Source of the DNA: a virus
Taxonomy: Duplodnaviria; Heunggongvirae; Uroviricota; Caudoviricetes
DNA: 13,756 bases
Strand: one strand, 5' to 3'
Virus record (IMG/VR): IMGVR_UViG_2874945390_000001
Span: 1 to 13,756 of that record
The notes under the pieces are model-generated. The model ran no database searches. It was not told where the DNA came from and worked only from the letters and a program-made list of their open reading frames with translations. This document shows, piece by piece, positions 3,355-6,300 of the stretch. Made by a program: the position numbers and the translations under genes. The first letter of the stretch is position 1. Every line of letters starts with the position of its first letter.

Positions 3355-3459
3355 GATTCCACCTCTCCGGTTTTAACGTAAGCGCCCCATCAGCGACGTC
3401 TTGTGAAAATTGTCCTGTCTGGCAACAATCGCGCCCATCTATATAGATGGACACGAACG

Positions 3460-4134
3460 ATGAATTCCCAGACAAAAAAAGATATTCCCTGCTTCCGTTC
3501 TTATTTGCCTGATGCCCTGCGTTTAAGATTTGAAGATAAACTGACCATCCGGGCCATCGCTCAGCGTCTGGGTCTCAGTCATTCCACAATACATACGCTT
3601 TTTCAGCGATTTCTTGCATCCGGTATCGCATGGCCATTGCCCGATTCAGTTTCATTCGCTCAACTTGACGCCATCCTTTATGCCAACAGAAAGAAGGAAT
3701 TAACAGAGCCTCAAATCAGAGAAGGCTCATGGCGAAAAGAACGGCGAACCAGCTATAGCCGTGAATTTAAGGTCCGTCTGGCTAAGCAGGCGTTACAGCC
3801 TGGGGCTGTTGTTGCCCGGATCGCCAGAGAACACGATATCAATAATAACCTGCTGTTTAAATGGAAAAGCCAGTACGAGGACGGCTTACTGAGCGATGAT
3901 GACATACAGGAATGCATGCCTGTCCCGGTGGCACTGACTGATACGCCGGAGCCGACCAGACCAGTTACAAATCCCTTCTGGCGTAACAAGCATGATGAGC
4001 GCCCTGAGGGGGCTCCCGGAAACGTCCCACGGTGCGAGCTGCATCTTAAATCAGGTGTGGTAAAACTGTTTGACCCTCTCACTCCGGAACTGTTACGGGC
4101 GCTAATCCGCGAAATGAAAGGGGGTATCCGATGA
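3460..4134 (+). CDS. tnpA: IS66-family accessory protein TnpA (orf1) with N-terminal HTH extension
   Basis: C-terminal half (SYSREFKVRLAKQALQPGAVVARIAREHDINNNLLFKWKSQYE) is IS66 Orf1-like. The start is ambiguous: GTG at 3403 or ATG at 3460. Confidence 0.7.
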   Translation: MNSQTKKDIPCFRSYLPDALRLRFEDKLTIRAIAQRLGLSHSTIHTLFQRFLASGIAWPLPDSVSFAQLDAILYANRKKELTEPQIREGSWRKERRTSYSREFKVRLAKQALQPGAVVARIAREHDINNNLLFKWKSQYEDGLLSDDDIQECMPVPVALTDTPEPTRPVTNPFWRNKHDERPEGAPGNVPRCELHLKSGVVKLFDPLTPELLRALIREMKGGIR

Positions 4135-4478
4135 TAACGCTGCCGACCGGTACCAAAATCTGGATCATCGCTGGCATCACAGATATGCGTTGTGGCTTCA
4201 ATGGCCTGGCTTCGAAGGTGCAGAACACGCTGAAAGATGACCCGTTCTCCGGGCATATCTTCGTCTTCCGGGGCCGCAGTGGCAAAATGGTGAAAATACT
4301 GTGGGCCGATCGTGACGGGTTATGCCTGTTCGCCAAACGCCTGGAACGGGGCCGCTTCGTCTGGCCGGTGACCCGGGAAGGGAAAGTGCACCTGACGCCA
4401 GCTCAGTTATCCATGCTACTGGAGGGGATCGCGTGGCAACATCCCAAACGGACAGAACGGCCTGGCATCCGGATATAA
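4131..4478 (+). CDS. tnpB: IS66-family TnpB (orf2)
   Basis: 115 aa. MITLPTGTKIWIIAGITDMRCGFNGLA...DPFSGHIFVFRGRSGKMVKILWADRDGLCLFAKRLERGRFVWP matches the conserved IS66 Orf2 signature. Start overlaps the tnpA stop. Confidence 0.9.
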   Translation: MITLPTGTKIWIIAGITDMRCGFNGLASKVQNTLKDDPFSGHIFVFRGRSGKMVKILWADRDGLCLFAKRLERGRFVWPVTREGKVHLTPAQLSMLLEGIAWQHPKRTERPGIRI

Positions 4479-4539
4479 CCCGTGATAAAACAAGGGAATG
4501 AACAATTAACTCCCCGATGATATTGAGCTGCTTAAAGCC

Positions 4540-5972
4540 ATGTTGCGTAAGCAACAGAGTCGGCTTCGACAGTATGCCTGTCAGGTCGCGGGCTATGAGC
4601 AGGAAATTGAACGGCTGAAAGCGCAACTCGACAGGTTGCGTCGTATGTTGTTCGGCCAGAGTTCAGAGAAAAAGCGTCATAAGCTTGAAAATCAGATCCG
4701 ACAGGCAGAAAAACGACTGTCGGAACTGGAAAACCGGCTGAACACAGCCAGAAATCTTCTGGAAGATGCATCGTCAGTCACAGATTCACCTGACACCAGT
4801 CCCCCGTCAGAAAACCCGATCGCCAGTAAGCCTGAATCCCCGGGACGAAAATCTTTACGAAAACCGCTGCCGGCAGAACTTCCCCGGGAGACACATCGCC
4901 TTCTGCCTGCTGAAACCAGTTGCCCGGCCTGTGGAGGTGTTCTGAAAGAAATGGGGGAAACAATCTCAGAGCAACTGGATATCATTAATACCGCCTTTAA
5001 AGTTATCGAAACCATACGTCCCAAACTGGCCTGTAGCCGGTGTGATGTCATCGTTCAGGCACCACTTCCCCCTAAACCGATCGAACGCGGTTATGCCAGT
5101 GCAGGGTTACTTGCACGGATCCTGGTCAGCAAATATATGGAACATATCCCTTTATATCGCCAGTCAGAAATATACGCGCGACAGGGCGTGGAGCTGAGCC
5201 GTAATACCATGGTGCGCTGGGTATCAGAAATGGCAGACAAACTCCGTCCTCTGTATATAGCGCTGAATGACTATGTTCTGGAGGCAGGAAAGGTGCACGC
5301 AGATGACACTCCGGTGAAAGTACTGGCCCCGGGGAACGGAAAGACGAAAACGGGTCGTCTGTGGGTATACGTCAGGGATGATCGTAATGCGGGTTCATCC
5401 CTGCCGGCAGCCGTCTGGTTCGCGTATTCGGCAGATCGCAAAGGAGAACATCCGCAGCTCCACCTGGCAAAGTATCAGGGCGTACTGCACTGCAGGCTGA
5501 TGCCTATGCAGGTTATAACGTACTGTACGAAACGGGCGGGGTGAAGGAAGCCGGGTGCCTGGCCCACGCCCGCCGAAAAATCCATGACGAGGATGTGCGC
5601 CGTCCGACAGAAATGACTCAGGAAGCGCTCAGACGGATAGCAGAGTTATACGACATAGAAGCGGAGATACGTGGCAGTCCGGCAGAGGAACGGCTTGCAG
5701 TCAGAAAAGCCAGAAGCGTCCAGTTGATGCAGTCGTTGTACGACTGGATACAGTTGCAGAGGAAAACGCTGTCGAAACATGCGGAGATGGCGAAGGCGTT
5801 CGACTATATCCTGAATCACTGGAATGCGCTGAACGAGTTCTGTCGTGACGGCTGGGTGGAAATAGACAACAACATCGGTGAAAACGCGTTACGATCGGTG
5901 GCGGTTGGAAGAAAAAATTATCTCTTTTTCGGCTCAGACAAGGGAGGAGAAAGTGCGGCGATCATCTACAGG
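4540..5972 (+). pseudogene. tnpC: IS66-family transposase TnpC (orf3), frameshifted and C-terminally truncated
   Basis: The two ORFs 4540..5544 and 5541..6038 are consecutive parts of one transposase. Tandem CTGCA-CTGCA at 5485-5494 shifts the frame; the other frame restores the conserved ...[22 protein letters not shown]... Similarity is lost after about 5970. Confidence 0.85.
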
Positions 5973-6051
5973 AGTGATTTATTAAATTTTCCTGAAGTGT
6001 GCATGTTTATTTTTACCCCCTCGTTTAAAAAGTTTTGAGTTGTGCCTCCCC

Positions 6052-6286
6052 TTGTCTACCTTATCTACCTTATCTACCTTGCTGGCCCTCATGCCAGTAA
6101 TGGCGCGGCTTTCAGCGGGGTAGAGTGCTTTTATCCACTATCTACCCCGTGTCTACCTCCCTGTCTGATTCAGGTAAAATCAGGTAGAGAGGGTAGATAG
6201 TGGGTAGACAGTAAAAAAAGCTGTCTACCTAACTTAATGTACTGAATTAAATGTATTTTCCTTTACTCAGGTAGACAGGGTAGACA
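6052..6286. repeat. Iteron array: putative replication origin for the adjacent primase/helicase
   Basis: About 12 copies of an 8-9 bp motif in both orientations: TTRTCTACC three times in tandem at 6052-6078, again at 6138-6157 and 6221-6229; GGTAGAGA/GGGTAGATA/GGGTAGACA at 6183-6211 and 6269-6285. AT-rich flanks; lies directly downstream of the primase stop (6301). Confidence 0.65.
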
Positions 6287-6300
6287 GCAATTACAAAAAA

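Follow-up and report, generated by a model that had tools for sequence, protein, structure and literature searches.

A transposase-dead ISSfl3 allele with a 5-bp tandem duplication in tnpC, and its copy in a decayed satellite prophage of Shigella boydii

Introduction

ISSfl3 is an element of the IS66 family with the gene order tnpA-tnpB-tnpC and the left end GTAAGCGCCCC. The copy described here shares both features, and sister copies in its genome show 8-bp target duplications. Unlike ISSfl3, it has no right end, and its tnpC carries a 5-bp duplication together with a stop at codon 4. It resides in a P4-like satellite next to yejM, which displays the features common to such satellites, namely an integrase, a D5/P4-type primase, Icd-like genes, C4-type immunity, and capsid and decoration genes. 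Islands in E. coli are 90–95% identical to it, and in the E. coli relative the integrase has a tRNA-Pro gene as its neighbour. Compared with these islands the satellite is decayed: the integrase is frameshifted, the primase is split by IS600, and ISSfl3 has inserted with an adjacent deletion.

Two further described systems are relevant. Slipped-strand tandem-duplication frameshifts of the Streisinger type have the lacI CTGG hotspot as their classic example. The lesions in tnpC and in the integrase gene (int) are likewise perfect head-to-tail copies that are single-copy in relatives and shift the frame. Unlike the classic type, they had no prior repeat tract at either site, and the microhomology amounted to 1 bp (tnpC) and 3 bp (int). 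They are one-off events and not contingency-locus switching. The second system is the concerted evolution of defective IS in Shigella, which the ISSfl3 copies resemble in that all of them carry one inactivating lesion and show mosaic SNP exchange. In Shigella, decayed prophages are commonplace, and so are IS transposases with frameshifts.

Results and Discussion

The satellite prophage

The window, i.e. the whole stretch of 13,756 nucleotides that was analysed, is identical to positions 117822–131577 of CP026836.1, from Shigella boydii GCA_002950135.1. It is a decayed P4-like satellite prophage with capsid and decoration genes, an SSB gene, a D5/P4-type primase, an iteron field, a C4-type antisense-RNA immunity region, and an integrase. 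E. coli relatives have the island between yejM, the tRNA-Pro gene, and yejO; in the source genome, yejM lies just past the integrase end. ISSfl3 adjoins the SSB gene. At least six inactivating lesions were present in the window, two of them tandem duplications. The others were an IS600 insertion, the ISSfl3 insertion with its adjacent deletion, a nonsense mutation, and a truncation. The IS600 element was located as follows.

7912–9175, plus strand: IS600 in the satellite primase gene, with a 3-bp target duplication at 7909–7911 and 9176–9178

Logan contigs of other runs stop exactly at this insertion point (7912–9175), which suggests that the IS600 insertion is common to related strains. Positions 6048–6290, directly past the stop codon of the primase gene (6301, minus strand, downstream end), hold at least ten copies of the 8-bp iteron TRTCTACC in both orientations; relative to E. 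coli AST198 the field is longer or shorter by one 9-bp unit. This field is probably the P4-type origin of the satellite. Rfam gave gathering-level matches on the minus strand to C4 antisense RNAs at 10284–10371 and 10763–10850, to a c4-a1b1 target at 10439–10488, and to isrK at 10875–10951. The region 10284–10951 is a duplicated P4/P1-type RNA immunity region.

The ISSfl3 copy in the window

The features of the element were the following.

3378–5971, plus strand: ISSfl3 (IS66 family), IS positions 1–2589 of 2754, by BLAST against complete E. coli genomes
3460–4134, plus strand: tnpA, 224 aa, intact (Pfam HTH_Tnp_1)
4131–4478, plus strand: tnpB, IS66 accessory protein, 115 aa, intact (Pfam TnpB_IS66)
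4498–5544, plus strand: N-terminal part of tnpC, native ATG at 4498, DDE_Tnp_IS66 profile positions 2–132 only
4507–4509, plus strand: nonsense codon (GAA>TAA) at tnpC codon 4, common to 6 of 13 ISSfl3 copies in the genome
5484–5494, plus strand: 5-bp tandem duplication in tnpC, perfect (ACTGC ACTGC A), single ACTGCA in intact elements
5541–6038, plus strand: C-terminal part of tnpC, DDE profile positions 148–283

The nucleotide identity to the ISSfl3 reference copy was about 99.2–99.4% over IS positions 1–2589, the BLAST matches to E. coli genomes gave about 99.2–99.5%, and elements more than 99% identical carry the corresponding RefSeq names. The IS66 domain set was found consecutively in the three genes (Pfam HTH_Tnp_1 in tnpA; TnpB_IS66 in tnpB; LZ_Tnp_IS66, zf-IS66, and DDE_Tnp_IS66 in tnpC). 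The left end is present at 3378 and the right inverted repeat is missing, so that the window copy does not have both terminal inverted repeats, while the sister copies are complete. The last 165 bp of the element, comprising the right inverted repeat and the final ~45 codons of tnpC, are gone, and ~219 bp of the adjoining satellite DNA are also deleted. As the right end is deleted, an 8-bp target duplication cannot be read here; it was present at the sister copies L046, L050, L023, and L020 and at the intact reference copy L002.

At 5971/5972 the element is cut at IS position 2589 and fused straight to satellite DNA. The ~219 bp that are missing make up the greater part of a small hypothetical gene of E. 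coli AST198, and the junction looks like an IS-adjacent deletion. The C-terminal ORF of tnpC leaves the element at 5971 and continues into satellite DNA up to its stop. An exact look-up of the 207-aa ORF across the IS/satellite junction gave no match, probably because alternative start codons are translated differently.

The duplication in tnpC

Window positions 5485–5494 read CTGCACTGCA, and the surrounding positions 5478–5499 read GGGCGTACTGCACTGCAGGCTG. The tnpC of the window has GCGTACTGCACTGCAGG, compared with GCGTACTGCAGG in intact ISSfl3 copies. A base-by-base alignment with the intact copy L002 of E. coli FDAARGOS_943 showed the change from ACTGCA to ACTGCACTGCA as the sole indel over 2.6 kb. 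The duplicated state is derived, and the earlier description of tnpC as split by CTGCA-CTGCA at 5485–5494 was confirmed by this alignment. A tandem 5-mer by itself is not significant in the window, where 14 were observed and 13 expected from shuffles. As this count is at chance level, the case for an insertion in tnpC rests on the comparison with intact copies. At both tnpC and int the inserted bases are an exact copy of the adjacent ones, and relatives are single-copy.

The duplication interrupts the DDE_Tnp_IS66 domain (Pfam), and downstream of it the tnpC reading resumes in the −1 frame. The longest ORF of the N-terminal part covers 4540–5544, its final 19 aa being out of frame. Profile positions 133–147 are absent from both ORFs. 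As the N-terminal ORF covers positions 2–132 and the C-terminal ORF 148–283, the conserved QADAYAGY segment of TnpC is encoded by neither.

When one unit was removed from a sister copy, its TnpC had 533 aa and matched the S. flexneri protein exactly. The window copy has no uninterrupted 533-aa DDE TnpC on account of three lesions, i.e. the codon-4 stop, the +5 frameshift, and the 3′ truncation. With the stop and the truncation in place, removing one CTGCA would not restore a working tnpC there. Two of the ISSfl3 copies with the codon-4 stop were flanked by perfect 8-bp target duplications.

Distribution of the duplicated allele

All 13 ISSfl3 copies read in GCA_002950135.1 carried the identical duplication (10 chromosomal, 3 on plasmid CP026837.1). 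The copies were located by exact-protein look-ups, and 13 is the number of copies read rather than a full listing of the 5.1-Mb chromosome, which may also hold an intact ISSfl3 copy. The duplication was also present in 4 of 4 ISSfl3 copies of CP119444.1, an unrelated EIEC pINV plasmid from France, and the frameshifted tnpC product occurred in the Logan assemblies SRR17296985, SRR31559683, SRR29259496, and ERR200293. By contig counts, the frameshifted 348-aa product gave 26, compared with 576 for the intact 533-aa TnpC. An exact look-up of the intact protein, covering 24 index blocks, found no intact ISSfl3 tnpC in the source genome. The 187-aa downstream ORF is an unclean proxy for the duplication, as different lesions give the same ORF in two other assemblies.

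Among the PLSDB plasmids with ISSfl3, the duplication was found in 2 of 115 and was absent from 113. None of 52 E. coli RefSeq records with a matching ISSfl3 showed it. Scanned with a pattern that fits either allele, the GTDB representative genomes, which do not include the source genome, yielded 8 matches; these came from 2 genomes, and none of the 8 had the duplication. The scan of metagenome contigs for the duplicated junction gave 0 matches. The duplicated allele is thus rare outside the S. boydii genome and is independently attested. Unlike other ISSfl3, the duplicated sub-lineage was seen only in the S. boydii genome, one EIEC pINV, and a few read sets. Literature searches with ISSfl3, CP026836, and IS66 TnpC gave no description of a duplicated ISSfl3 allele.

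Spread among the copies

Orthologous copies on pINV were informative. The ospC4-adjacent ISSfl3 copy has identical flanks (TACGGGATTAAT on one side and CTTCAAAATGAT on the other) in five plasmids. In the S. boydii and EIEC-France plasmids this copy had the duplication; in pCP301 (allele read from the BLAST alignment), EIEC-Thailand, and FDAARGOS_944 it did not. The ospI-adjacent flank showed the same presence/absence polymorphism. Since orthologous copies exist with and without the duplication, at least one pre-existing copy gained the allele in place. The SNPs among the 13 copies were mosaic and the four-gamete test failed, e.g. for positions 1130 vs 1929 and 68/99 vs 1130, which indicates recombination between ISSfl3 copies. 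Gene conversion between ISSfl3 copies is demonstrably active. The four-gamete test also failed between the duplication and position 615 when EIEC-France copies were compared with Shigella copies; recurrence of the duplication could explain this as well.

The duplication-carrying copies L046, L050, L023, and L020 occupy distinct sites of the chromosome, each between the two halves of a perfect 8-bp target duplication. Target duplications at defective copies fit transposition with transposase supplied in trans, and other IS66-family elements are present in these replicons. Many ISSfl3 copies have no target duplication, as expected after IS-mediated rearrangement.

The integrase lesion

The second tandem duplication was observed in the integrase gene.

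12507–13756, minus strand: integrase pseudogene, split into ORFs of 298 aa and 118 aa (comparison with the E. coli relative; Pfam)
12900–12915, minus strand: 8-bp tandem duplication, GATAACGT twice, in the satellite integrase (vs the E. coli relative)

Comparison with the E. coli relative, whose integrase reads GATAACGTGAT with a 3-bp GAT microhomology, bore out the 8-bp duplication that had been described from the window alone. It breaks the catalytic Phage_integrase domain at profile position 80 of 172. Tandem 8-mers are rarer in the window than tandem 5-mers, with 1 locus observed and 0.18 expected. The frameshifted product and the duplicated DNA were found in the Logan assemblies SRR6760302, SRR4180506, and DRR015923. 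An exact look-up of the 118-aa fragment gave no match, probably because of the different translation of alternative start codons. The integrase duplication is a separate, single-locus event, vertically inherited within a group of strains.

Upstream of the integrase, at the intergenic position 12112, the window differs from E. coli AST198 by a 21-bp indel between 10-bp direct repeats (CACCGTTTTT), which is another repeat-mediated indel.

Origin of the duplicated allele

As the duplication is present in 13 of 13 copies, it arose in the IS lineage and reached the window with the element or by gene conversion. We propose that one slipped-strand (template-misalignment) event duplicated ACTGC within the DDE catalytic domain of ISSfl3 tnpC. 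Judged from the sequences, slippage-type duplication is the most likely origin of the tnpC lesion and of the int lesion, each for itself; the microhomology at the tnpC site is minimal (1 bp). The event probably had a single origin, in an ancestor of the ISSfl3 copies of the S. boydii lineage and the related pINV plasmid lineage. The frameshift would strip a 13-residue segment from both ORFs and leave no intact transposase. The duplicated allele would then have come to fill every ISSfl3 copy, partly by non-reciprocal recombination (gene conversion) between copies and partly, probably, by transposition of defective copies with transposase in trans. The window copy may have received the duplication with the arriving element or by conversion from another copy. 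Its codon-4 stop, common to five sister copies, may have been gained before or after the duplication, and its right end was presumably lost through an IS-adjacent deletion. The int duplication would be an independent slippage event at a single locus, passed on vertically in a group of strains. The two lesions would be close together only because a dead IS landed in a satellite prophage that is decaying and free of selection. This whole account, with a single inherited duplication of an IS lineage that spread by conversion and transposition, and with a separate int lesion, is in our judgement highly probable.

One alternative reads the 5-bp and 8-bp duplications as target-site footprints of departed mobile elements. 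Target duplications of 5 bp are made by elements of the Tn3, Mu, and IS2 types and those of 8–9 bp by the IS66 and IS1 types, so the sizes fit common lengths, and the genome is rich in IS. However, when a bacterial IS excises, the usual outcome is the original sequence or the loss of additional DNA, and not a clean doubled target. Neither site holds a remnant of such an element, and the int unit is flanked by a GAT...GAT microhomology as expected for slippage. We consider footprints very unlikely.

A local origin of the tnpC duplication, which together with the int lesion would mark one mutational process behind both, local or specific to the strain, such as elevated slippage, was one of two explanations offered in the earlier note. 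It gains from the presence of two perfect short tandem duplications within 7.4 kb and from the other satellite indels, which are likewise mostly repeat-associated (one 9-bp iteron unit and the 21 bp between 10-bp repeats), three further 1-bp indels relative to the E. coli relative being in base runs. As most of these indels are repeat-associated, a duplication is a normal kind of indel here. The proposal does not account for a duplication found in 13 of 13 ISSfl3 copies, on chromosome and plasmid, and on the plasmid of another strain, which predates the insertion in the window or was copied in. The int lesion is present in other read sets too, and the remaining window lesions differ in type (IS600 insertion, nonsense mutation, deletion). 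A process common to both sites survives to the extent that slippage is the likeliest origin of each; as a joint event it gives way to a lesion shared by 13 of 13 copies and another confined to a single locus. Of the claim that short tandem duplications knock out both genes, it holds that both are perfect and frameshifting, but the window tnpC is also dead by stop and truncation. We give the local process hardly any credence.

Bypass of the frameshift, by programmed −1 ribosomal frameshifting or transcriptional slippage, would make the allele a down-regulated functional transposase and so explain its spread in many copies. In its favour, the allele occupies at least 13 copies, of which several retain intact 8-bp target duplications, and the shift needed is −1, the type used by many IS. 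Against this, the 5385–5544 overlap contains neither an X XXY YYZ slippery heptamer nor a homopolymer run, the ancestral tnpC is a single ORF, and six of the copies have the codon-4 stop as well. Bypass thus appears just as implausible as the local process.

An artefact of sequencing or assembly, at one site or at both, the other explanation in the earlier note, has a negligible chance of being right: nothing in its favour was found beyond the theoretical possibility that a variant was carried from one repeat copy to others when a long-read assembly was polished with short reads, the ISSfl3 copies retain distinct SNP haplotypes, which argues against such polishing, both lesions recur in independent Logan short-read assemblies from different submitters as exact frameshifted products (and as DNA where checked), and the separately sequenced French EIEC plasmid CP119444.1 carries the tnpC duplication.

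Significance

The locus reflects ordinary Shigella genome decay and matters little beyond annotation. The tnpC site is an inherited marker of an inactive ISSfl3 sub-lineage within a decayed satellite prophage, and nothing in it points to an unusual mutational process or to errors in the assembly. As a handy lineage marker, the duplication ties the IS population of the S. boydii strain to one EIEC pINV lineage. Of mild interest is only the fixation of a transposase-dead allele in all copies read in two sets of replicons. A dead transposase common to all these copies makes ISSfl3 a small case in which concerted evolution or trans-mobilisation of IS66-family elements can be tested. It is possible, though we hold this only tentatively and lean against it, that transposase-dead ISSfl3 is the sole allele at the S. 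boydii sites (at least 13) and in the four EIEC pINV copies, through trans-mobilisation or a conversion sweep. If true, either IS66-family elements are efficiently mobilised in trans, or an IS family has silenced itself by gene conversion.

Further observations on ISSfl3 copies

In the original record of pCP301 (S. flexneri 301), ISSfl3 is labelled 'ISSfl4' and a different element is labelled 'ISSfl3', which is a naming trap. On pINV (copies L006, L055, and L060), ospI is flanked by two inverted ISSfl3 copies. The ospI-side ISSfl3 flanks are swapped in S. boydii relative to EIEC-France, which indicates an inversion by recombination between ISSfl3 copies. ISEc11 interrupts ISSfl3 at the same internal position in L007 (CP119444.1, 118667–122867) and L040, copies from different EIEC strains that lie at separate plasmid loci; a perfect 8-bp target duplication is present at one of the two. 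Either a 4.2-kb ISSfl3/ISEc11 composite moved, or ISEc11 repeatedly targets that site.
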